Assembly: GCF_024223415.1 (NCBI RefSeq)
Contig: NZ_CP100500.1
Strand: one strand, 5' to 3'
Source of the DNA: Escherichia coli
GTDB taxonomy: Bacteria; Pseudomonadota; Gammaproteobacteria; Enterobacterales; Enterobacteriaceae
Length of the DNA: 64,000 bases
In this document: positions 20,410-47,915 of the stretch, piece after piece
Numbering within the stretch: position 1 is the stretch's first letter
Layout of the letters: the number at the start of each line of letters is the position of its first letter
Made by a program: the position numbers and the translations under genes
Notes under the pieces: model-generated
What the model was told of the DNA's origin: nothing
Database searches by the model: none
The model's input: the letters and a program-made list of their open reading frames with translations, nothing else

Positions 20410-21435
20410 CTACACCGCCTTATTAGGATCAAATGCGTCGCGGACGGCTTCACCAATAAAGATCAGCAAAGACAATAATATCGCCACCGACAAGAAGGCG
20501 GTGATCCCAAGCCACGGGGCCTGAAGGTTATTTTTCCCTTGTAACAGCAGTTCACCGAGTGACGGTGAACCGAGCGGCAGACCGAAGCCGAGGAAATCGA
20601 GTGAGGTCAGGGTGGTTATCGAACTACATAAAATAAACGGTAAAAAGGTGAGGGTCGCGACCATGGCATTAGGCAACATATGACGCAGGATGATACTGCG
20701 ATCGCTGACGCCAAGCGCCTGCGCCGCACGAATGTAGTCGAAATTACGGGTACGTAAAAACTCCGCCCGCACCACGCCGACCAGACTCATCCAGCCAAAC
20801 AAGACAGTAATTGCCAGCAGCCACCAGAAGTTAGGCTGTACGACGCTGGAAAGTAAAATAATCAAAAACAGCGTCGGCATCCCCGACCATACTTCAATAA
20901 AGCGCTGCCCCCAGAGATCGACCTTACCGCCGTAATAGCCTTGTAGCGCCCCCGCCAGCACGCCCATCACGCTGGAACAAAGAGTCAGCATCAGGCCAAA
21001 CAGAACCGAGATCCGCGTGCCATAGAGAATACGTGCCAGCACATCGCCGCCGTTGGCATCCGTTCCCAGCCAGTTTTGCCGGGAGGGGGGAGAAGGGAAG
21101 GGCTTATCGGTAGCAAAGTTGATACTGGTAGCACCAAAGCGAATCGGTGCCCACAGTACCCAGCCATTATTTTCCAGCCGTTGTTTCAGCCACGGGTCCT
21201 GATAATCAGCCTGACTTGCCAGAGGGCCGCCAAAATCGCTTTCACTGTAATTTTTCAACAACGGGAAATACCAACTGCCGTCATAACGCACCAGCAACGG
21301 TTTATCGTTGGCGATAAGTTCAGAACACAAACTCAAACCAAACAAAACGAGGAAAATCCATAACGACCAGTAGCCGCGACGGTTATGGCGAAAACGCGCC
21401 CAACGGGTCTGATTGACGGGGCTGAGTCGCGACAT
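20410..21435 (-). CDS. yejE: ABC transporter permease YejE (341 aa)
   Basis: Translated ORF recognised as E. coli YejE; synteny. Confidence 0.9.
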   Translation of the reverse strand: MSRLSPVNQTRWARFRHNRRGYWSLWIFLVLFGLSLCSELIANDKPLLVRYDGSWYFPLLKNYSESDFGGPLASQADYQDPWLKQRLENNGWVLWAPIRFGATSINFATDKPFPSPPSRQNWLGTDANGGDVLARILYGTRISVLFGLMLTLCSSVMGVLAGALQGYYGGKVDLWGQRFIEVWSGMPTLFLIILLSSVVQPNFWWLLAITVLFGWMSLVGVVRAEFLRTRNFDYIRAAQALGVSDRSIILRHMLPNAMVATLTFLPFILCSSITTLTSLDFLGFGLPLGSPSLGELLLQGKNNLQAPWLGITAFLSVAILLSLLIFIGEAVRDAFDPNKAV

Positions 21436-22529
21436 TAACGTCCCTCAAAATCTATACGCGGATCGACCAGCGTATAGCTGATATCACTGACAATATTCAG
21501 CAGCAGGCCAATCAGGGTGAAAATATACAAGGTACCAAACATTACAGGATAATCGCGCGAGACGGTCGCTTCGTAGCCCAGTAAGCCAAGACCATTGAGT
21601 GAAAACATCACCTCAATCAGCAGCGAGCCGGTAAAAAACATGCTGATAAACGTCGCCGGAAAACCGGCAATCACCAGCAGCATGGCGTTGCGGAACACAT
21701 GTTTCCAGAGAATATTTTTTTCACTTACCCCTTTCGCACGCGCGGTCACCACGTATTGCTTGCGCACTTCATCAAGGAATGAGTTTTTTGTCAGCATAGT
21801 CAGCGCCGCAAAGCCACCAATCACCGTCGCCAGCACCGGCAGCGTGATATGCCACAGATAATCGGTGATTTTCTGATACCACGGCAGCGAATCAAAGTTA
21901 GCGGAAACCAGGCCGCGTAGAGGGAACAGGTCGAAATAGCTGCCGCCTGCGAAGAAGACAATCAGCAGGATGGCAAACAAAAAGGCCGGAATGGCGTAGC
22001 CGATGATGATAAATGCGCTACTCCAGACGTCAAAGCGGCTCCCATTATAAACAGCTTTGCGAATGCCTAACGGAATCGACACCAGATAGATAATCAGCGT
22101 GCTCCACAATCCGAGGGTGATGGAAACCGGCAGACTGTCTTTAATCAGCGTCAGCACCGAGGCGCTGCGAAACAGGCTATCGCCAAAATCAAAGCGGATG
22201 TAGTCCCAGAGCATTTTGAAGTAACGTTCATGGATCGGCTTATCGAAACCGTAGCGATGAGTGATCTCGGCGATCACTTCTGGATCTAATCCGCGTCCGC
22301 CACGGTAATTACTGTCGCTGATATTGCCGACACCCGTTTGCGCATGGCTGGCACGAACACCTTCACCGCCTGCGCCGGGTAATACTCCGGCATTACCAAA
22401 CTCAATGGCGGCGATGGCCTGGTCGACCGGACCGCCAGGCGCAATTTGCACGATGAAAAAGTTGATAGTGATAATCGCCCATAACGTTGGGATCACCAGC
22501 AACAGACGGCGAATCAGATAAGCGCCCAT
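21435..22529 (-). CDS. yejB: ABC transporter permease YejB (364 aa)
   Basis: Translated ORF recognised as E. coli YejB; synteny. Confidence 0.9.
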
Positions 22530-35297: not shown

Positions 35298-36989
35298 ATG
35301 AAAACGCTGCTGATTATTGACGCTAATCTCGGTCAGGCACGCGCCTATATGGCGAAGACCCTGCTGGGCGCGGCGGCGCGAAAAGCAAAACTGGAAATCA
35401 TCGACAATCCGAACGACGCAGAAATGGCGATTGTTCTCGGTGATTCCATCCCGAATGACAGCGCGCTGAACGGTAAAAATGTCTGGCTGGGCGATATTTC
35501 CCGGGCAGTTGCGCACCCTGAGCTGTTCCTGAGTGAAGCCAAAGGCCATGCGAAACCTTACACTGCGCCGGTCGCTGCGACAGCACCGGTTGCCGCCAGC
35601 GGTCCGAAACGCGTAGTTGCGGTGACTGCTTGCCCGACTGGCGTAGCACACACCTTTATGGCGGCTGAAGCCATTGAAACCGAAGCGAAAAAACGTGGCT
35701 GGTGGGTGAAAGTTGAAACCTGTGGTTCTGTTGGTGCGGGTAATGCAATCACCCCCGAAGAAGTAGCCGCAGCGGATCTGGTGATTGTGGCGGCAGATAT
35801 CGAAGTGGATCTGGCGAAATTTGCTGGTAAACCGATGTATCGTACCTCTACTGGTCTGGCGCTGAAGAAAACCGCGCAGGAACTGGATAAAGCGGTTGCT
35901 GAAGCAACGCCGTATGAACCGGCGGGCAAAGCTCAAACGGCGACCTCTGAAGGTAAGAAAGAGAGTGCAGGCGCATACCGTCACTTGCTGACGGGTGTCT
36001 CTTACATGCTGCCGATGGTCGTTGCAGGTGGTCTGTGTATCGCGCTTTCTTTTGCTTTTGGTATCGAAGCGTTTAAAGAGCCGGGTACGTTGGCAGCGGC
36101 GCTGATGCAGATTGGTGGTGGTTCAGCCTTTGCGCTGATGGTGCCGGTACTGGCAGGTTATATTGCCTTCTCCATTGCCGATCGTCCGGGTCTCACGCCG
36201 GGTCTGATTGGCGGTATGCTGGCGGTCAGCACCGGTTCTGGCTTCATTGGCGGTATTATTGCGGGCTTCCTGGCTGGTTACATTGCGAAGTTAATCAGTA
36301 CGCAACTGAAACTGCCACAGAGTATGGAGGCGCTGAAACCGATCCTGATCATTCCGCTAATTTCCAGTCTGGTGGTCGGTCTGGCGATGATCTACCTGAT
36401 CGGTAAACCGGTTGCTGGCATTCTCGAAGGGTTGACTCACTGGCTGCAGACCATGGGGACTGCGAATGCGGTTCTGCTGGGGGCGATCCTCGGTGGCATG
36501 ATGTGTACTGACATGGGCGGTCCGGTAAATAAAGCAGCGTACGCATTCGGTGTGGGTCTGCTGAGTACTCAAACCTATGGCCCGATGGCGGCGATTATGG
36601 CGGCAGGTATGGTGCCACCGCTGGCAATGGGTCTGGCAACAATGGTGGCGCGTCGCAAATTTGACAAAGCGCAGCAGGAAGGTGGCAAAGCCGCTCTGGT
36701 TCTTGGTCTGTGCTTTATTTCGGAAGGTGCAATTCCGTTTGCTGCTCGTGATCCGATGCGTGTGCTGCCGTGCTGTATCGTGGGTGGGGCGCTGACTGGC
36801 GCAATCTCAATGGCGATTGGTGCGAAACTGATGGCACCGCACGGTGGTCTGTTTGTTCTGCTGATCCCTGGCGCTATTACGCCGGTACTGGGTTACCTGG
36901 TAGCAATTATTGCCGGTACGCTGGTGGCGGGTTTGGCCTATGCCTTCCTGAAACGTCCGGAAGTGGACGCAGTAGCGAAAGCCGCGTAA
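35298..36989 (+). CDS. fruA: Fructose PTS EIIB'BC component FruA (563 aa)
   Basis: Translated ORF recognised as E. coli FruA. Confidence 0.9.
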   Translation: MKTLLIIDANLGQARAYMAKTLLGAAARKAKLEIIDNPNDAEMAIVLGDSIPNDSALNGKNVWLGDISRAVAHPELFLSEAKGHAKPYTAPVAATAPVAASGPKRVVAVTACPTGVAHTFMAAEAIETEAKKRGWWVKVETCGSVGAGNAITPEEVAAADLVIVAADIEVDLAKFAGKPMYRTSTGLALKKTAQELDKAVAEATPYEPAGKAQTATSEGKKESAGAYRHLLTGVSYMLPMVVAGGLCIALSFAFGIEAFKEPGTLAAALMQIGGGSAFALMVPVLAGYIAFSIADRPGLTPGLIGGMLAVSTGSGFIGGIIAGFLAGYIAKLISTQLKLPQSMEALKPILIIPLISSLVVGLAMIYLIGKPVAGILEGLTHWLQTMGTANAVLLGAILGGMMCTDMGGPVNKAAYAFGVGLLSTQTYGPMAAIMAAGMVPPLAMGLATMVARRKFDKAQQEGGKAALVLGLCFISEGAIPFAARDPMRVLPCCIVGGALTGAISMAIGAKLMAPHGGLFVLLIPGAITPVLGYLVAIIAGTLVAGLAYAFLKRPEVDAVAKAA

Positions 36990-36999
36990 TAAAAGGTGT

Positions 37000-37032
37000 G
37001 TTACAGGGCAGAAATTTACTGCCCTGTATCAT
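37000..37032 (+). terminator. Hairpin downstream of fruA (probable terminator)
   Basis: Stem cagggcag/ctgccctg directly after the fruA stop; weak T tract. Confidence 0.45.
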
Positions 37033-37412
37033 TGGATGAGCGCAAAGAGAATGACCGGTTTGTGAATGTAATTTTATGAATTTAAATGGTTTTATCTTTC
37101 AGTAGAAACCTGAAACGTTCATCAAACACTAAGGTTATTTCCTCAAGGGCAGATTCTTTTCTGCCCTTTTTTAGTGTTCATGTTCTGTGCATCCCGTCAC
37201 AAATTCCTCGCTTTTGTAATTCAGGCATTTAATCGCATTTTGTGAGCCTGCTCAAATCTGCCCGCTTTGCCTCTCTGGCGGCAATTTACTTTACGTAAAA
37301 CATGCATACTATGAGCACATGTTTAAATATGAACACATGTTTAAACCGTCTTTGCAGTATCTATATCCTTGTGGATTGACAGGGTTGGTAATTTTTTACC
37401 AGAGGACGTGCT

Positions 37413-38354
37413 ATGCGCGAAAAGGATTATGTCGTAATTATAGGTTCGGCGAATATTGATGTCGCCGGATATTCACATGAATCATTAAATTATGCGGATT
37501 CAAATCCAGGTAAAATAAAATTTACACCTGGTGGAGTAGGGCGAAATATTGCACAAAACCTGGCGTTGCTGGGTAACAAAGCCTGGCTACTGAGCGCAGT
37601 AGGTAGTGATTTTTATGGTCAATCGCTGCTAACGCAAACCAATCAATCTGGCGTTTATGTCGATAAATGCCTGATTGTGCTGGGAGAAAATACGTCGAGT
37701 TATTTATCATTACTCGATAATACCGGTGAAATGCTGGTTGCTATAAATGACATGAATATTAGCAACGCTATTACAGCTGAATATCTCGCACAACACCGTG
37801 AATTTATTCAGAGGGCAAAGGTCATTGTCGCGGACTGTAATATCAGTGAAGAGGCACTGGCATGGATTCTGGATAATGCCGCCAACGTACCCGTATTTGT
37901 CGATCCGGTTTCAGCGTGGAAATGTGTCAAAGTGCACGACCGTCTAAATCAGATCCACACTCTGAAGCCAAACCGCCTTGAAGCGGAAACCCTGAGTGGG
38001 ATAGCGCTGTCAGGGCGTGAAGATGTGGCAAAGGTTGCCGCCTGGTTCCATCAACATGGCCTGAACCGACTGGTATTGAGCATGGGCGGCGATGGCGTTT
38101 ATTACAGTGAAATCAGCGGTGAAAGTGGCTGGTCTGCCTCGATCAAAACCAATGTTATTAATGTTACCGGAGCGGGCGATGCCATGATGGCGGGACTTGC
38201 TTCGTGTTGGGTAGACGGAATGCCGTTTGCCGAATCTGTTCGTTTCGCACAGGGATGTTCGTCAATGGCGCTCTCCTGTGAATACACCAATAACCCCGAT
38301 TTATCGATTGCCAACGTTATATCGTTAGTGGAGAACGCAGAATGTCTGAATTAA
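37413..38354 (+). CDS. psuK: Pseudouridine kinase PsuK/YeiC (313 aa)
   Basis: Translated ORF recognised as E. coli YeiC; PfkB-family kinase motifs. Confidence 0.9.
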   Translation: MREKDYVVIIGSANIDVAGYSHESLNYADSNPGKIKFTPGGVGRNIAQNLALLGNKAWLLSAVGSDFYGQSLLTQTNQSGVYVDKCLIVLGENTSSYLSLLDNTGEMLVAINDMNISNAITAEYLAQHREFIQRAKVIVADCNISEEALAWILDNAANVPVFVDPVSAWKCVKVHDRLNQIHTLKPNRLEAETLSGIALSGREDVAKVAAWFHQHGLNRLVLSMGGDGVYYSEISGESGWSASIKTNVINVTGAGDAMMAGLASCWVDGMPFAESVRFAQGCSSMALSCEYTNNPDLSIANVISLVENAECLN

Positions 38355-39280
38355 AAATTTCCCCTGAATTATTACAAATTTCCCCGGAAGTGCAGGACGC
38401 TTTAAAAAACAAAAAACCGGTTGTGGCGCTGGAATCGACCATTATTTCTCACGGGATGCCGTTCCCACAAAATGCCCAGACCGCAATTGAAGTTGAAGAA
38501 ACTATTCGTAAACAGGGCGCAGTACCTGCCACTATCGCCATTATTGGTGGCGTGATGAAAGTGGGTTTAAGCAAAGATGAAATTGAATTACTGGGTCGTG
38601 AAGGGCATAACGTGACCAAAGTTAGTCGTCGCGATTTACCTTTTGTTGTTGCCGCCGGAAAAAATGGCGCAACCACTGTGGCTTCAACGATGATTATTGC
38701 GGCGCTTGCCGGAATTAAAGTATTTGCCACCGGGGGAATTGGTGGTGTTCATCGCGGGGCGGAACATACCTTCGATATTTCTGCCGATTTGCAAGAACTG
38801 GCAAATACTAATGTCACCGTTGTTTGTGCCGGGGCGAAATCTATTCTCGATTTAGGATTAACCACTGAGTATTTAGAAACCTTCGGTGTGCCGTTAATTG
38901 GCTATCAGACTAAAGCGCTGCCTGCGTTTTTCTGCCGCACCAGCCCATTTGAAGTCAGTATTCGCCTTGATAGTGCCACGGAAATCGCTCGTGCAATGGC
39001 AGTGAAATGGCAAACCGGTTTGAACGGTGGTCTGGTAGTGGCGAATCCGATCCCGGAACAGTTTGCGATGCCGGAGGAATCTATCAATGCAGCCATAGAT
39101 CAAGCCGTCGCCGAAGCCGAAGAGCAGGGCGTTATTGGTAAAGAAAGTACACCGTTCCTGCTGGCGCGTGTTGCTGAACTGACCGGCGGTGACAGCCTGA
39201 AATCCAACATCCAACTGGTGTTCAACAACGCCATTCTGGCGAGCGAAATTGCCAAAGAATACCAGCGTCTCGCGGGTTAA
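38342..39280 (+). CDS. psuG: Pseudouridine-5'-phosphate glycosidase PsuG/YeiN (312 aa)
   Basis: Translated ORF recognised as E. coli YeiN. Confidence 0.9.
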   Translation: MSELKISPELLQISPEVQDALKNKKPVVALESTIISHGMPFPQNAQTAIEVEETIRKQGAVPATIAIIGGVMKVGLSKDEIELLGREGHNVTKVSRRDLPFVVAAGKNGATTVASTMIIAALAGIKVFATGGIGGVHRGAEHTFDISADLQELANTNVTVVCAGAKSILDLGLTTEYLETFGVPLIGYQTKALPAFFCRTSPFEVSIRLDSATEIARAMAVKWQTGLNGGLVVANPIPEQFAMPEESINAAIDQAVAEAEEQGVIGKESTPFLLARVAELTGGDSLKSNIQLVFNNAILASEIAKEYQRLAG

Positions 39281-39373: not shown

Positions 39374-40624
39374 ATGGATATAATGAGAAGTGTTGTGGGG
39401 ATGGTGGTGTTACTGGCAATAGCATTTCTGTTGTCGGTAAATAAAAAGAGCATCAGTTTGCGCACGGTTGGAGCCGCACTGCTGCTGCAAATCGCTATTG
39501 GTGGCATCATGCTCTATTTTCCGCCGGGAAAATGGGCAGTAGAACAGGCGGCATTAGGCGTTCATAAAGTGATGTCTTACAGTGATGCCGGTAGCGCCTT
39601 CATTTTTGGTTCGCTGGTCGGGCCGAAAATGGATGTCTTGTTCGACGGTGCAGGCTTTATCTTCGCCTTTCGCGTACTTCCGGCGATTATCTTCGTCACT
39701 GCGCTTATCAGCCTGCTGTACTACATTGGCGTAATGGGACTGCTAATTCGTATTCTTGGCAGCATTTTCCAGAAAGCTCTTAACATCAGCAAAATCGAGT
39801 CTTTTGTTGCGGTTACCACTATTTTCCTCGGGCAGAACGAGATCCCGGCGATCGTTAAACCGTTTATCGATCGCATGAATCGCAACGAGCTGTTTACCGC
39901 AATTTGTAGCGGGATGGCATCCATTGCCGGTTCGATGATGATTGGTTACGCCGGAATGGGCGTGCCGATTGACTACCTGTTAGCGGCATCGCTGATGGCT
40001 ATCCCAGGCGGTATTTTGTTTGCACGTATTCTTAGCCCAGCAACCGAGCCTTCGCAGGTCACGTTTGAAAATCTGTCGTTCAGCGAAATGCCGCCAAAAA
40101 GCTTTATCGAAGCAGCGGCGAGCGGTGCGATGACCGGGCTGAAAATCGCCGCCGGTGTGGCGACGGTGGTCATGGCGTTTGTCGCAATTATTGCGCTGAT
40201 TAATGGCATTATTGGCGGAATTGGCGGCTGGTTTGGTTTTGCCAATGCCTCTCTGGAAAGTATTTTTGGCTATGTGCTGGCACCGCTGGCGTGGATCATG
40301 GGTGTGGACTGGAGTGATGCCAACCTTGCGGGTAGCCTGATTGGGCAGAAACTGGCGATTAACGAATTCGTCGCTTACCTGAGTTTCTCCCCATACCTGC
40401 AAACGGGCGGCACGCTGGAAGTGAAAACCATTGCGATTATCTCCTTTGCGCTTTGTGGTTTTGCTAACTTTGGTTCTATCGGTGTTGTCGTTGGGGCATT
40501 TTCGGCTATTTCGCCAAAACGTGCTCCGGAAATCGCCCAGCTTGGTTTACGGGCGCTGGCAGCAGCAACGCTTTCCAACCTGATGAGCGCGACCATTGCC
40601 GGGTTCTTTATTGGTTTAGCTTGA
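39374..40624 (+). CDS. psuT: NupC-family nucleoside transporter PsuT/YeiM (416 aa)
   Basis: Translated ORF recognised as E. coli YeiM; close paralog of nupX further right. Confidence 0.9.
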   Translation: MDIMRSVVGMVVLLAIAFLLSVNKKSISLRTVGAALLLQIAIGGIMLYFPPGKWAVEQAALGVHKVMSYSDAGSAFIFGSLVGPKMDVLFDGAGFIFAFRVLPAIIFVTALISLLYYIGVMGLLIRILGSIFQKALNISKIESFVAVTTIFLGQNEIPAIVKPFIDRMNRNELFTAICSGMASIAGSMMIGYAGMGVPIDYLLAASLMAIPGGILFARILSPATEPSQVTFENLSFSEMPPKSFIEAAASGAMTGLKIAAGVATVVMAFVAIIALINGIIGGIGGWFGFANASLESIFGYVLAPLAWIMGVDWSDANLAGSLIGQKLAINEFVAYLSFSPYLQTGGTLEVKTIAIISFALCGFANFGSIGVVVGAFSAISPKRAPEIAQLGLRALAAATLSNLMSATIAGFFIGLA

Positions 40625-40691: not shown

Positions 40692-41351
40692 TTACTGCAT
40701 CATCCCGGAGAATTTATTCTCCGGGTCCATCTCCAGCGCCAGTCCTGACAACTGCTTTCTGTTTTTAATGAGATATCCTTTCTTGCTTTTAATTAATAAA
40801 CCGTCGTGAATGAATTGCGCGAGAACATATAAAAGATGTCGATAAGAAACGCCTAAATACTCTGCCGCTTGCGTATGCTTTTCGTGATAAAGATCACCTT
40901 CTTGTGAGAGTAATATAAATGCTGCCAGGCGATTCACTAACGGAAATGATTGATTCTGAGTTAAAGAAACAATATTACGATAATTTTTATGACTTAAGGT
41001 GACGCAAAGTTTTCGTAAAAATAGGGTGTCGTTTAATAACAGCGGACGGTAATGTTTCATAGGGAGCGCAAGGCACCAACACTCTTCAATCGCCTGTACT
41101 GCACGTGGTTCATGGTCTTTATCGATTAACTCAATCTCGCCAATAAAACAGGGGGCGGCAAAGAAATCGATCAGCGACACGCAACCATTAGCTAGCGTGG
41201 CGTAAAGCCTGGCGCGGCCTCGCGTCAGGTAAAACAGCCAGGACGGCTGTTGCCCTTCCTGCACAATGTAGTCACGCGCTAAAAAATGAAACAGCCGCGT
41301 ATCGGCTGAAACATCCGTTAAAAAGCAATCCTTAAACGCGGATTCACTCAT
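40692..41351 (-). CDS. yeiL: Crp/Fnr-family regulator YeiL (about 219 aa)
   Basis: Translated ORF recognised as E. coli YeiL; C-terminal HTH. Confidence 0.85.
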
Positions 41352-41519
41352 CAATTGCTGCTTAAGATCATTATTGTGGATTTCTTTCACGATGTTTATC
41401 CGCTATGAGATTTCTCATATTTAGCATACGTACGCTGTTGTTAAGATTCAATCATCGGCCCGGTCGAATTTTCTTTGCTGTAGAAAAAATAACGCAACTG
41501 GAAACAGAGGAAATAAACA

Positions 41520-42461
41520 ATGGAAAAGAGAAAAATTATTCTGGATTGTGATCCGGGTCATGATGATGCTATTGCAATGATGATGGCAGCGAAACATCCG
41601 GCAATAGATTTATTAGGCATCACTATTGTAGCGGGTAATCAGACGCTTGATAAAACATTAATTAATGGCCTGAATGTTTGCCAGAAACTGGAGATTAATG
41701 TTCCGGTTTATGCGGGGATGCCGCAACCCATTATGCGTCAACAAATCGTTGCCGATAATATTCACGGTGAAACCGGACTGGATGGCCCGGTATTCGAGCC
41801 GCTGACCCGCCAGGCAGAAAGTACCCACGCGGTGAAATACATCATTGATACCCTGATGGCAAGCGATGGCGATATCACTCTGGTGCCGGTTGGTCCGTTG
41901 TCAAATATCGCGGTGGCAATGCGTATGCAACCCGCAATCCTGCCCAAAATCCGTGAAATTGTGCTAATGGGCGGCGCTTACGGTACAGGCAACTTCACGC
42001 CATCTGCCGAGTTCAACATCTTTGCTGACCCGGAAGCCGCACGCGTGGTGTTCACCTCCGGCGTTCCATTAGTGATGATGGGCCTCGATCTTACCAACCA
42101 GACCGTTTGCACCCCGGACGTAATTGCTCGGATGGAAAGGGCAGGCGGCCCTGCCGGAGAGCTATTCAGCGACATCATGAACTTCACTCTCAAAACGCAG
42201 TTCGAAAACTACGGCCTGGCTGGCGGCCCGGTGCACGACGCCACCTGCATCGGTTATCTGATTAACCCTGATGGCATTAAAACCCAGGAGATGTACGTCG
42301 AAGTGGACGTCAACAGTGGCCCTTGTTATGGGCGTACCGTCTGCGACGAGCTGGGCGTTCTTGGCAAGCCCGCTAATACCAAAGTCGGCATCACTATTGA
42401 TACCGACTGGTTCTGGGGCTTAGTCGAAGAGTGCGTGCGCGGCTACATCAAAACCCATTAA
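41520..42461 (+). CDS. rihB: Pyrimidine-specific ribonucleoside hydrolase RihB/YeiK (313 aa)
   Basis: N-terminal DCDPGHDDA nucleoside-hydrolase motif; recognised as E. coli RihB. Confidence 0.9.
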
Positions 42462-42560
42462 GTGTTGATAACAAGCCGGGCCGGTATCGCAAGATGCAGG
42501 CCTGGCTATTTCTGAGGGGCAGAAAGCCGTCGCCCAATATGACATGAAGAGATAATAACT

Positions 42561-43808
42561 ATGGATGTCATGAGAAGTGTTCTGGGAATGGTGGTATTGC
42601 TGACGATTGCGTTTTTACTGTCAGTAAACAAGAAGAAGATCAGCCTGCGTACCGTTGGCGCGGCGTTAGTGTTACAGGTCGTGATCGGCGGGATTATGCT
42701 TTGGTTACCGCCAGGGCGTTGGGTCGCTGAAAAAGTCGCTTTTGGCGTGCATAAAGTGATGGCGTACAGCGATGCAGGTAGCGCATTTATCTTCGGTTCG
42801 CTGGTCGGGCCGAAAATGGACACGCTGTTTGATGGCGCAGGATTTATCTTTGGTTTCAGGGTGTTACCGGCAATTATCTTCGTCACCGCGCTGGTGAGTA
42901 TTCTCTACTACATCGGTGTGATGGGGATCTTAATTCGCATTCTCGGCGGTATCTTCCAGAAAGCGTTAAATATCAGCAAGATCGAGTCATTCGTCGCGGT
43001 CACTACCATTTTCCTCGGGCAAAACGAAATTCCGGCAATCGTCAAACCCTTTATCGATCGGCTGAATCGCAATGAGTTATTTACAGCGATTTGTAGTGGC
43101 ATGGCCTCAATTGCCGGTTCGACAATGATTGGTTACGCCGCGCTGGGCGTGCCTGTGGAATATCTGCTGGCGGCATCATTAATGGCGATCCCCGGCGGGA
43201 TCTTGTTTGCCCGCCTGTTAAGCCCGGCTACGGAATCTTCGCAGGTTTCCTTTAATAACCTCTCTTTCACCGAAACACCGCCAAAAAGCATTATTGAAGC
43301 GGCAGCGACAGGGGCGATGACCGGGCTGAAAATCGCTGCGGGTGTGGCAACAGTGGTGATGGCATTTGTTGCCATCATTGCGTTAATTAACGGTATTATC
43401 GGCGGCGTTGGCGGCTGGTTTGGTTTTGAACATGCCTCGCTGGAGTCCATTTTAGGTTATCTGCTGGCCCCACTGGCGTGGGTAATGGGTGTTGACTGGA
43501 CTGATGCGAATCTTGCCGGGAGTTTGATTGGACAGAAACTGGCAATAAATGAATTTGTCGCTTATCTCAATTTCTCACCCTATCTGCAAACGGCTGGCAC
43601 TCTGGATGCTAAAACCGTGGCGATTATTTCCTTCGCGTTGTGCGGTTTCGCTAACTTTGGTTCTATCGGGGTGGTGGGGGCGTTTTCTGCGGTTGCGCCA
43701 CACCGTGCGCCGGAAATCGCCCAACTTGGTTTACGCGCGCTGGCGGCGGCGACACTTTCTAATCTGATGAGTGCCACCATTGCCGGGTTCTTTATTGGTT
43801 TAGCGTAG
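42561..43808 (+). CDS. nupX: NupC-family nucleoside permease NupX/YeiJ (415 aa)
   Basis: Translated ORF recognised as E. coli NupX. Confidence 0.9.
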   Translation: MDVMRSVLGMVVLLTIAFLLSVNKKKISLRTVGAALVLQVVIGGIMLWLPPGRWVAEKVAFGVHKVMAYSDAGSAFIFGSLVGPKMDTLFDGAGFIFGFRVLPAIIFVTALVSILYYIGVMGILIRILGGIFQKALNISKIESFVAVTTIFLGQNEIPAIVKPFIDRLNRNELFTAICSGMASIAGSTMIGYAALGVPVEYLLAASLMAIPGGILFARLLSPATESSQVSFNNLSFTETPPKSIIEAAATGAMTGLKIAAGVATVVMAFVAIIALINGIIGGVGGWFGFEHASLESILGYLLAPLAWVMGVDWTDANLAGSLIGQKLAINEFVAYLNFSPYLQTAGTLDAKTVAIISFALCGFANFGSIGVVGAFSAVAPHRAPEIAQLGLRALAAATLSNLMSATIAGFFIGLA

Positions 43809-43863: not shown

Positions 43864-44952
43864 TTACACCATTGGCACTAATGACAGCGCGTTATCGGCA
43901 GACAGGGTAGGGTTGTTTAAGCTGCCGCTGGCGCGTGAAATTGCCGCGCAGGCCATCGCAAAACGGGCGCTGTCACGGAAATTGTTTCCCTCCAGAAAGC
44001 TATATACCAGACCCGCCATAAAACCATCGTCAGCACCAAAACTGTCTACCGTCGTATGCGCTGGCACAGTCAGCAAAAATTGTTCACCATCCTTTTCGCT
44101 GCAATAAACTGACTCATCGGGCAAATAAACAAACAGTTGCTGAACACCTTGCTGATGCAATGCATTCACTGCGGCATTACGGTCAGCATCGCTGGTGATC
44201 GCCTGTCCCCATAAAATTTCCAGCTCCGGTAAAGTGGGTTTCAGGGTGTGAACATGCGCCAGCCAGTGTTTGATTTTGCCCGCTTTGAATTCTGAAACGG
44301 TATCGACAAACACCGGGATCTCACCAGCGAGGGTAAAGACCCATTCCAGCGCCTCGGCTGTCAGGTTGCAATCAGCCAGTACCACGCCCGCATGACGAAG
44401 TAAATCGCGCGACCCGTTCAATAATTGCGGCGATAACTGTTCCAGCAGATGGGTATCGTTAATCGCCAGCACGGTTTGATCGTCTCGATTGGCAATTGCC
44501 AGATACGTCGATGTGCTTTGACCATGTAAACGAACGCAGCCGGAGACATTCACGCCGGCGCGGCGCGTTTCTTCCAGGAGCATTTCGCCATAAAAGTCAT
44601 CGCCAATCACTGAAAGCAAATGGACGTCACGGCCTAACAGCGCCAGATTGTGGGCGATGTTGCGTCCCACGCCGCCCGCCGAGCAATGAATCGTACCGGG
44701 ATGAGAAGCCGCTTGCGGGTAACGGATATCCGCCATCCCGCGAATATCCATATTGATTGTCCCCACCACTACGCAGTATTCCTGCTCGGTGAGAATGTAA
44801 CCTTTGCCTTTAATCCGCCCTTTGCGCATTAAATCCATAATATGCGCCGCAACGCGCGAACGACTGATTTGCAGCATGTCCGCAATTTCGTTCTGCTGAA
44901 TCAGCGGGTTACGCCGTAAAATTGCAAGGATCTCCTTTTCCCGGTTATTCAT
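43864..44952 (-). CDS. yeiI: Putative sugar kinase with N-terminal HTH, YeiI (362 aa)
   Basis: Translated ORF recognised as E. coli YeiI; PfkB-like domain paralogous to psuK. Confidence 0.85.
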   Translation of the reverse strand: MNNREKEILAILRRNPLIQQNEIADMLQISRSRVAAHIMDLMRKGRIKGKGYILTEQEYCVVVGTINMDIRGMADIRYPQAASHPGTIHCSAGGVGRNIAHNLALLGRDVHLLSVIGDDFYGEMLLEETRRAGVNVSGCVRLHGQSTSTYLAIANRDDQTVLAINDTHLLEQLSPQLLNGSRDLLRHAGVVLADCNLTAEALEWVFTLAGEIPVFVDTVSEFKAGKIKHWLAHVHTLKPTLPELEILWGQAITSDADRNAAVNALHQQGVQQLFVYLPDESVYCSEKDGEQFLLTVPAHTTVDSFGADDGFMAGLVYSFLEGNNFRDSARFAMACAAISRASGSLNNPTLSADNALSLVPMV

Positions 44953-47033: not shown

Positions 47034-47915
47034 ATGCACATCACCCTCCGGCAGTTGGAAGTTTTTGCAGAAGTATTGAAAAGTGGATCAACCACCCAGG
47101 CGTCGGTGATGCTGGCGTTGTCGCAATCAGCAGTGAGCGCAGCCTTGACCGACCTGGAAGGGCAGCTTGGCGTGCAACTGTTTGATCGCGTGGGGAAAAG
47201 ACTGGTTGTTAATGAACACGGGCGGCTGCTCTATCCGCGTGCGTTGGCACTGCTTGAACAGGCGGTTGAAATCGAACAACTGTTTCGCGAAGACAACGGC
47301 GCGATTCGTATCTATGCCAGTAGTACCATCGGTAACTACATTCTGCCTGCAGTTATCGCCCGTTATCGCCATGATTATCCGCAGTTGCCGATTGAACTTA
47401 GCGTTGGGAACAGCCAGGACGTGATGCAAGCGGTGCTGGATTTCCGCGTTGATATTGGCTTTATTGAAGGACCGTGCCACAGCACTGAAATCATTTCTGA
47501 ACCGTGGCTGGAAGACGAGCTGGTGGTTTTCGCCGCGCCGACTTCGCCGTTGGCCCGTGGTCCGGTCACCTTAGAACAGCTGGCCGCTGCGCCGTGGATC
47601 CTGCGTGAACGCGGTTCCGGCACGCGGGAGATTGTCGATTATCTGTTGCTGTCACATTTACCGAAGTTTGAGATGGCGATGGAATTAGGTAACTCCGAGG
47701 CAATCAAACATGCGGTGCGTCATGGGTTGGGAATTAGTTGCCTGTCGCGACGGGTGATTGAAGATCAATTGCAGGCAGGCACATTAAGTGAAGTTGCGGT
47801 CCCTCTGCCGCGCCTGATGCGTACGTTGTGGCGTATACATCATCGGCAAAAACACCTTTCCAACGCGCTACGGCGCTTTCTGGACTATTGCGATCCCGCG
47901 AATGTACCGCGTTAA
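47034..47915 (+). CDS. yeiE: LysR-family transcriptional regulator YeiE (293 aa)
   Basis: Translated ORF recognised as E. coli YeiE; divergent from yeiH. Confidence 0.9.

Follow-up and report, generated by a model that had tools for sequence, protein, structure and literature searches.

A conserved pair of dyads at the psuK promoter of Escherichia coli as candidate operators for the kinase-like protein YeiI

A short tandem repeat lies between fruA and psuK in the 64-kb stretch of E. coli DNA that we analysed as a whole (the window), and comparison across strains, genera and orders indicates that it is a genuine conserved regulatory element. We consider it probable that the repeat is a tandem pair of operators for YeiI, a protein with a winged helix fused to a PfkB domain, which would repress psuKGT until pseudouridine relieves the repression. 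Conservation of the sites exceeded neutral expectation in the comparison of E. coli strains, the enteric alignment, the count of paired sites and the scores of a position weight matrix (PWM).

Results

The repeat upstream of psuK contains two dyads

The genes in this part of the window are ordered fruB-fruK-fruA, psuK, psuG, psuT, yeiL (minus strand), rihB, nupX, yeiI (minus strand) and nfo. The pseudouridine kinase gene psuK (37413-38354, plus strand; NCBIfam PRK09850, 703.9 bits) is followed on the same strand by psuG (38342-39280) and psuT (39374-40624), annotated as a pseudouridine-5'-phosphate glycosidase and a nucleoside transporter. Gene annotation and NCBIfam matches agreed with the names fruA and psuK that an earlier note on this DNA had used for the flanks of the intergenic region.

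Tandem Repeats Finder reported a single array at 37310-37345 with a period of 18, 2.0 copies, 94% matches and a score of 65. Together with a repeat search, it resolved two plus-strand units, TATGAGCACATGTTTAAA (37310-37327) and TATGAACACATGTTTAAA (37328-37345), which stand head to tail, are identical at 17 of 18 positions and start 18 nt apart. The 18-bp unit can be written as TATGA[G/A] followed by CACATGTTTAAA, an exact 12-mer that occurred only at 37316 and 37334 when the whole window was searched. From the end of the array to the psuK ATG (37413) there are 67 nt. The earlier note had placed a tandem repeat at 37302-37338; the repeat exists, but that range starts about 8 nt early and truncates the second copy. 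Its spacing of 19 bp has to be corrected to 18 by both programs, and its unit of 14 nt to one of 18.

Each unit holds a dyad, an element without strand. We call them O1, GAGC-ACAT-GTTT (37313-37324), and O2, GAAC-ACAT-GTTT (37331-37342); they would span about -6 to +6 and about +13 to +24 relative to the predicted transcription start. Their centres are 18 bp apart, about 1.7 helical turns, and since this is not a whole number of turns, cooperative binding on the same face is not obvious.

Within E. coli the dyads are kept while the repeat varies

In a sequence search, the intergenic region was 100% identical to that of strain 104 and 99.8% identical to those of O157:H7 strains. Across five diverse E. 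coli, a block of about 79 bp (37283-37361) had no substitution, and the rest of the 423-bp intergenic region diverged by about 5%. The near-perfect repeat marks a K-12/O157-type allele found in about 4,210 of 5,426 complete E. coli genomes. A second, E. albertii-like allele, present in 1,200 of the 5,426 (for example JML285, locus 4930-5135), keeps both dyads, and its units, TATGAACATGTGTTTAAA and TATGAACACGTGCTCTAA, are only 14/18 identical. We read the near-perfect direct repeat as a lineage-specific homogenisation of O2 towards O1.

Head-to-tail units in one, two or three copies make the array a copy-number polymorphism across E. coli genomes. Three units were seen in about 28 genomes and in two forms, G-G-A (KD0845) and G-A-A (strain 210205630), and one unit in strain EA7; two copies were retained in about 99% of the genomes with the K-12/O157-type allele. 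Larger rearrangements were also seen at this locus. In L1_E925 (locus 4053-5303) an IS1 has taken the place of the promoter and 5' half of psuK. In ER1709 the match was limited to the last 63 bp before psuK, and both psuK and fruB are annotated there, an arrangement suggestive of a deletion that joined the two genes. Plasmids accounted for six of the matches to the promoter query.

A RAAC-N4-GTTY dyad is conserved in pairs before pseudouridine operons

We compared the psuK upstream regions of Escherichia species, Citrobacter (four genomes), Buttiauxella (two), a MAG labelled Raoultella, Enterobacter and Affinibrenneria. All of the enteric regions compared contained, in the same order and without indels, TGTGA-N6-TCA[TA]A, ATTTAC[TA]TT, then after 16-17 nt a hexamer resembling TACTAT, and two dyads; the paired elements, RA[AG]CA-YR-TG[TC]T[TC], lie 18 bp apart directly after the -10-like hexamer. 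In the enteric alignment (12 sequences from four genera), O1 had the form RA[AG]CAYRTGTTY, and GAACA..TG.T of O2 was invariant. The promoter elements and both dyads were kept even where the upstream gene differs: in Citrobacter the neighbour is a LysR/racemase pair instead of fruA, which indicates that a region of about 170 bp travels with psuKGT.

Dyad pairs 18-19 bp apart were found before pseudouridine operons in ten genera from four orders. The spacing was 18 bp in Yersinia, Serratia and Pasteurella and 19 bp in Shewanella and Aliivibrio, in each case before the first psu gene. In Yersinia and Serratia the pair overlaps the annotated start of a fusion gene (described below), which has probably been placed 9 codons upstream of the true one. 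Dyad symmetry is present: O2 of E. albertii is a perfect palindrome, GAACATATGTTC, and symmetric sites occur in Shewanella (GCAAACATATGTTTGC) and Yersinia (CCAAACACTTGTTTGG). Because GAAC and GTTY are fixed while the spacer between the elements and the central YR vary, the conserved unit is the RAAC-N4-GTTY dyad, present twice. The direct repeat that had been taken as the recognised unit therefore gives way to the dyad, the near-perfect repeat being confined to one E. coli allele.

Further conserved sequence was seen around these pairs. In Yersinia, Serratia and Xenorhabdus an extra single palindromic site (e.g. CCAAACACTTGTTTGG) lies 250-290 nt upstream of the operon, at locus positions 6753-6764, about 6743-6760 and about 4715-4730, respectively, and the three share conserved leader blocks, CTTACGATC and CTTTACT. 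In E. coli, AAAACA[TC]GC at 37297-37305, in the spacer between the -35 and -10 hexamers, is near-invariant across genera and may belong to the promoter or supply a third half-site.

Site scans covered the window and the fetched loci. A PWM was trained on the sites of Yersinia, Serratia, Pasteurella, Shewanella and Aliivibrio only. In the 64-kb window it ranked O2 first (17.1 bits, against 11.8 for the next site) and O1 fourth (11.6 bits), and the O1+O2 pair, at 28.7 bits, stood well clear of both the next pair (13.6 bits) and the highest-scoring of 200 shuffles (19.6 bits); the test is partly circular, since the pattern used to locate the training sites came from the enteric sequences themselves. 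Single sites with the dyad motif occurred in the window at chance-level frequency, and the dyad-motif search also returned an identical 12-mer at 21693, within the coding ORF 21435-22529 (minus strand). RAAC-N4-GTTY pairs at 18-19 bp were almost confined to psu promoters, which accounted for 21 of the 22 pairs in about 260 kb of window and fetched loci, the sole other pair lying at 47256 within yeiE. The motifs that we take to be those of DeoR, RutR, KdgR, PurR/GalR/Cra and the Gram-positive LexA box differ from the dyad in spacing or bases.

The dyads overlap or follow the predicted start of a weak promoter

A -35 hexamer, TTTACT (37285-37290, plus strand), is followed after a 16-nt spacer by a -10 hexamer, TACTAT (37307-37312, plus strand), which would place the transcription start at about 37319. 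The string TTTAC.TT was invariant in the enteric alignment, and the -10 hexamer was TACTAT, TATTAT or TATCAT in all genera. Together the hexamers match 8 of 12 consensus positions, and because this falls below the threshold of the tool, a promoter scan of the wild-type sequence reported no plus-strand promoter above it. O1 begins one base after the conserved TACTAT, and its overlap with the start rests on the predicted start. Affinibrenneria has the same layout (-35 TTTACT, -10 TATATA, then AAAC); the hexamers in Aliivibrio, TTGACT-18-AATACT, are an unscored reading by eye.

Upstream, we read from the sequence a CRP-like site, TGTGAGCCTGCTCAAA (37241-37256, plus strand). It has 9 of the 10 core bases of TGTGA-N6-TCACA, and its centre lies at about -70.5, a position that hangs on the predicted start. 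TTGTGA and TCA.ATCT were invariant, and the stretch from the site to the -35 was free of indels (12 sequences, four genera). The combination of a weak -35 with a TGTGA-N6-TCAAA site whose centre falls about 70.5 bp ahead of the predicted start resembles CRP class I promoters, although both the CRP site and the start of psuK are predictions from sequence.

The promoter assignment finds independent support in a mutation reported elsewhere, which coincides with the -35 hexamer. A recurrent adaptive SNP in the psuK/fruA intergenic region, NC_000913.2 2257444 A>C, arose in 5/7 mouse-gut lineages and also in old mice. Its authors placed it in the psuK promoter region and noted that expression of psuK can be altered by intergenic changes of this kind; the expression table of that study is Supplementary Data 16 of PMC9509342. 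The same SNP is recorded in three long-term stationary-phase populations under the label 'psuKp'. Using the offset of 1,978 between NC_000913.2 and NC_000913.3, calibrated on srlR L25S from the same mutation tables, we mapped it to window position 37287, the third base of the -35, where it is T>G on the psuK strand and changes TTTACT to TTGACT. The SNP would thus improve the -35 hexamer, an assignment that is ours and not that of the authors. In an RpoD genomic SELEX data set, no constitutive promoter was given at fruA/psuK and one was given at nfo>yeiI.

YeiI is a PsuK-like protein with a winged helix and an altered catalytic motif

Comparisons of domains, structure and synteny led us to propose yeiI (43864-44952, minus strand) as the gene of the repressor; its product is a winged-helix protein with a PfkB, pseudokinase-like domain. 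Residues 1-48 matched Pfam HTH_24 at 41.2 bits (cut-off 21.9) and the PfkB domain scored 231 bits, and the family label, NCBIfam PRK09954, says 'sugar kinase' only. In the AlphaFold2 model (pLDDT 89.9), helices 3-14, 20-27 and 31-43 and a beta wing precede the PfkB domain. Residues 55-359 matched E. coli PsuK structures with E = 2.8e-66 and 38% identity, and the model superposed on PsuK with a TM score of 0.96 and an rmsd of 1.7 Å. The winged helix is near-invariant across orders (pattern ISRSxVAxHIMxL), which fits a conserved DNA motif.

For PsuK, PMC9061257 links Asn143 and Lys170 to pseudouridine affinity and Ser30 to a substrate-induced conformational change. These three residues (PsuK numbering) were invariant in all the fusions, YeiI included. 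In YeiI the catalytic GAGD is replaced by GADD; GADD or GADE was found in all 59 YeiI-clade proteins with a readable motif, and GAGD was intact in all 41 distant operon-first fusions with a readable motif. The GAD[DE] motif argues against kinase activity of YeiI but not against ligand sensing. YeiI thus shares with E. coli PsuK (PDB 7vkp, 7vtd) the fold of residues 55-359 and the pseudouridine-linked residues; it differs in its altered catalytic motif and in its 54 extra N-terminal residues, the winged helix, PsuK having no DNA-binding domain. A separate PsuK was present in five of the six YeiI-clade genera whose loci were examined (Escherichia, Citrobacter, Buttiauxella, Enterobacter and Affinibrenneria), and this, together with the altered motif, is consistent with a gene duplication in which one copy serves as the enzyme and the other as the sensor.

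HTH-PfkB genes accompany pseudouridine operons

In Citrobacter, Buttiauxella and Enterobacter a convergent yeiI comes directly after psuT and is followed by nfo, yeiH and yeiE; in E. coli only yeiL-rihB-nupX stand between psuT and yeiI. Relative to these three genera, yeiL-rihB-nupX (40692-43808) appear to have been inserted. In Yersinia, Serratia, Xenorhabdus, Pasteurella, Shewanella and Aliivibrio, an HTH-PfkB homologue (40-54% identity) heads an operon of the form [HTH-PfkB]-psuG(-psuT), and this operon-first fusion replaces PsuK in their genomes. Of the 11 other genera examined, 10 have the HTH-PfkB gene beside psuG, where it either converges on psuT or heads the operon. The exception is Phytobacter, in which yeiI (6001-7104) follows nfo, psuKGT is absent at the locus and fruA abuts yeiI; the Phytobacter YeiI may be an orphan or have a further role. 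Among the loci examined, the winged-helix and PfkB fusion was the sole DNA-binding protein that travels with psu operons.

Recent papers describe YeiI as uncharacterised or as a hypothetical transcription factor. The literature searched, with RegulonDB, EcoCyc and RegPrecise outside its scope, held no account of psuK regulation or of YeiI as a regulator, and no HTH-PfkB regulator was found in that literature or among the solved structures matched.

The leader and the fruA 3' region contain further hairpins

A hairpin, TGGTAA-TTTT-TTACCA (37386-37401, plus strand), lies directly 5' of the psuK Shine-Dalgarno sequence GAGGA (37402-37406). Its fourth pair is T:A, C:G or T:G according to lineage, and this compensatory change points to a structure in the RNA. 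With C:G, the sequence looks like a sigma-54 -24/-12 element; we rejected this look-alike (TGGCAAGTTAATTGCC in Citrobacter), as the K-12-type allele changes both key elements and keeps the hairpin. The fold of the psuK leader, which includes a hairpin of the two repeat units, had z = -2.5. An Rfam 15 scan of 36500-38000 reached 24.8 bits at best, well short of the threshold of 56, and that hit was on the opposite strand and did not include the repeat.

The fruA 3' region (36999-37175) contains two hairpins, one that lacks a T run (36999-37031) and a strong, terminator-like one that has it (37145-37168 plus tail). Between them, at 37110-37121, lies a sequence similar to a Cra box, CTGAAACGTTCA. 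These elements are well conserved in E. coli and without an Rfam match, and they could belong to a 3'UTR-derived RNA.

Discussion

The conservation of the paired dyads across genera and orders, in every case where an HTH-PfkB gene accompanies a psu operon, supports the suggestion of the earlier note that a dedicated regulator of the pseudouridine operon would bind here. The sites lie on and just downstream of the predicted start and not upstream of the promoter, a position that points to a repressor. The most likely candidate for this regulator is YeiI. From the arrangement of these elements we infer a start site, a role for CRP, binding by YeiI, repression and an inducer, which would act together as follows. 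O1 and O2 would cover the predicted start and the first 25 or so transcribed bases of a weak sigma-70 promoter for psuK-psuG-psuT, itself probably assisted by CRP; one YeiI dimer would sit on each dyad and block RNA polymerase; and pseudouridine, or its 5'-phosphate, would bind the kinase-like domain and cause release of the DNA.

The dyads might instead be operators of another protein, either YeiL (gene at 40692-41390, minus strand) or an unlinked regulator, which we regard as unlikely. The CRP/FNR family, to which YeiL belongs, binds 5-N4-5 dyads. YeiL combines a cNMP-binding domain with a Crp-type HTH, its gene is the next one after psuT in E. coli, and TGAAC-N4-GTTCA, as read from the sequence, has an FNR-like geometry. 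Yet the operators are kept in Citrobacter, Buttiauxella and Enterobacter, whose loci lack yeiL-rihB-nupX and have yeiI directly after psuT, and a search of the yeiL-rihB intergenic region found no dyad. Against other regulators in general, the HTH-PfkB gene is the only one common to the loci of Yersinia, Serratia, Pasteurella, Shewanella and Aliivibrio. That the repeat acts as RNA, through an 11-bp leader hairpin (GUUUAAAUAUG / CAUGUUUAAAC) that affects mRNA stability, translation or pairing with a small RNA, seems to us very unlikely. The z score of the leader, with the hairpin of the repeat units included, speaks for such a role, as does the listing of psuK mRNA among the targets of RprA by both TRIC-seq and RIL-seq (bioRxiv 10.1101/2025.09.11.675593). 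The hairpin, however, needs the near-identical units of the K-12/O157-type allele, and its arms are unpaired in the second allele (1200 genomes) and in other genera; GAAC and GTTY are fixed regardless, so that conservation is by base identity and not by covariation, Rfam gave no match, and in a simple duplex prediction the energy of the RprA-leader duplex was no better than that of shuffles.

Two further explanations take the same stretch differently. If a second promoter lay downstream (-35 TTTAAA at 37340-37345, -10 TATATC at 37362-37367, TATATT in K-12), the dyads would be activator sites upstream of it, and O2 would then be centred at about -37. The K-12 form, TTTAAA-16-TATATT, is a fair sigma-70 match, but the stretch from O2 to the hairpin is the least conserved and has a 14-bp deletion in one E. 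coli strain, and the conserved hexamers and the adaptive -35 SNP lie upstream of the repeat; we give this arrangement a very low probability. It is more doubtful still, to the point of being extremely improbable, that the repeat is a neutral, slippage-prone minisatellite, a tandem duplication without function. Copy number does vary, from one in EA7 to three in about 28 genomes, but about 99% of the genomes with the K-12/O157-type allele have two copies, the layout of two dyads is older than the genus, and the block is invariant where its flanks vary.

Several observations count against the proposed model: the Phytobacter yeiI without psuKGT at its locus, the 18-bp spacing, the sub-threshold hexamers, and the lack of yeiI mutations among those listed in the tables of the gut-evolution study, in which repressor knock-outs are common. 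A simple repressor is a large mutational target, so the absence of yeiI from the mutations listed is unexpected, unless the gut already supplies the inducer and the limit is set by promoter strength.

As a repressor, YeiI would have relatives in design. ROK-family repressors such as NagC and Mlc combine an N-terminal winged helix with a sugar-kinase-like domain that senses a substrate of the pathway, and they repress catabolic operons at dyad operators, often paired, together with activation by CRP. YeiI shares with them the winged helix and the kinase-like domain, here a putative sensor, and differs in that this domain adopts the ribokinase fold of PfkB proteins: YeiI matched no families other than PfkB and HTH, and its structural neighbours were all ribokinase-fold, with no ROK (ASKHA) domain. 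In the enzyme-repressors BirA, NadR and archaeal RbkR, an HTH is joined to an enzyme that is active in the very pathway under their control. The fusions of Yersinia, Serratia, Pasteurella, Shewanella and Aliivibrio, which keep GAGD and replace PsuK, look like this type, whereas YeiI, which coexists with PsuK and has GADD, looks like a sensor copy.

More tentatively, and with less confidence than we place in the operators themselves, we suggest that the HTH-PfkB proteins form a hitherto undescribed family of one-component regulators, which autoregulate pseudouridine catabolism at tandem RAAC-N4-GTTY dyads. In the Escherichia-Citrobacter-Enterobacter lineage, and in Affinibrenneria, the fusion gene may have been duplicated into a plain enzyme, PsuK, and a catalytically disabled sensor-repressor, YeiI, and one to three operators and the -35 mutation may tune the scavenging of pseudouridine, of host or microbial origin, in the gut. 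If true, this would give a function and a DNA motif to YeiI, one of the predicted transcription factors of E. coli K-12 that are still uncharacterised, and would explain the control of the pseudouridine operon. The gain of TTGACT from TTTACT at the -35 would offer a mechanistic reading of a mutation that sweeps repeatedly in the mouse gut and in long-term stationary phase, and the pair of PsuK and YeiI would point to the duplication of a kinase into a sensor.
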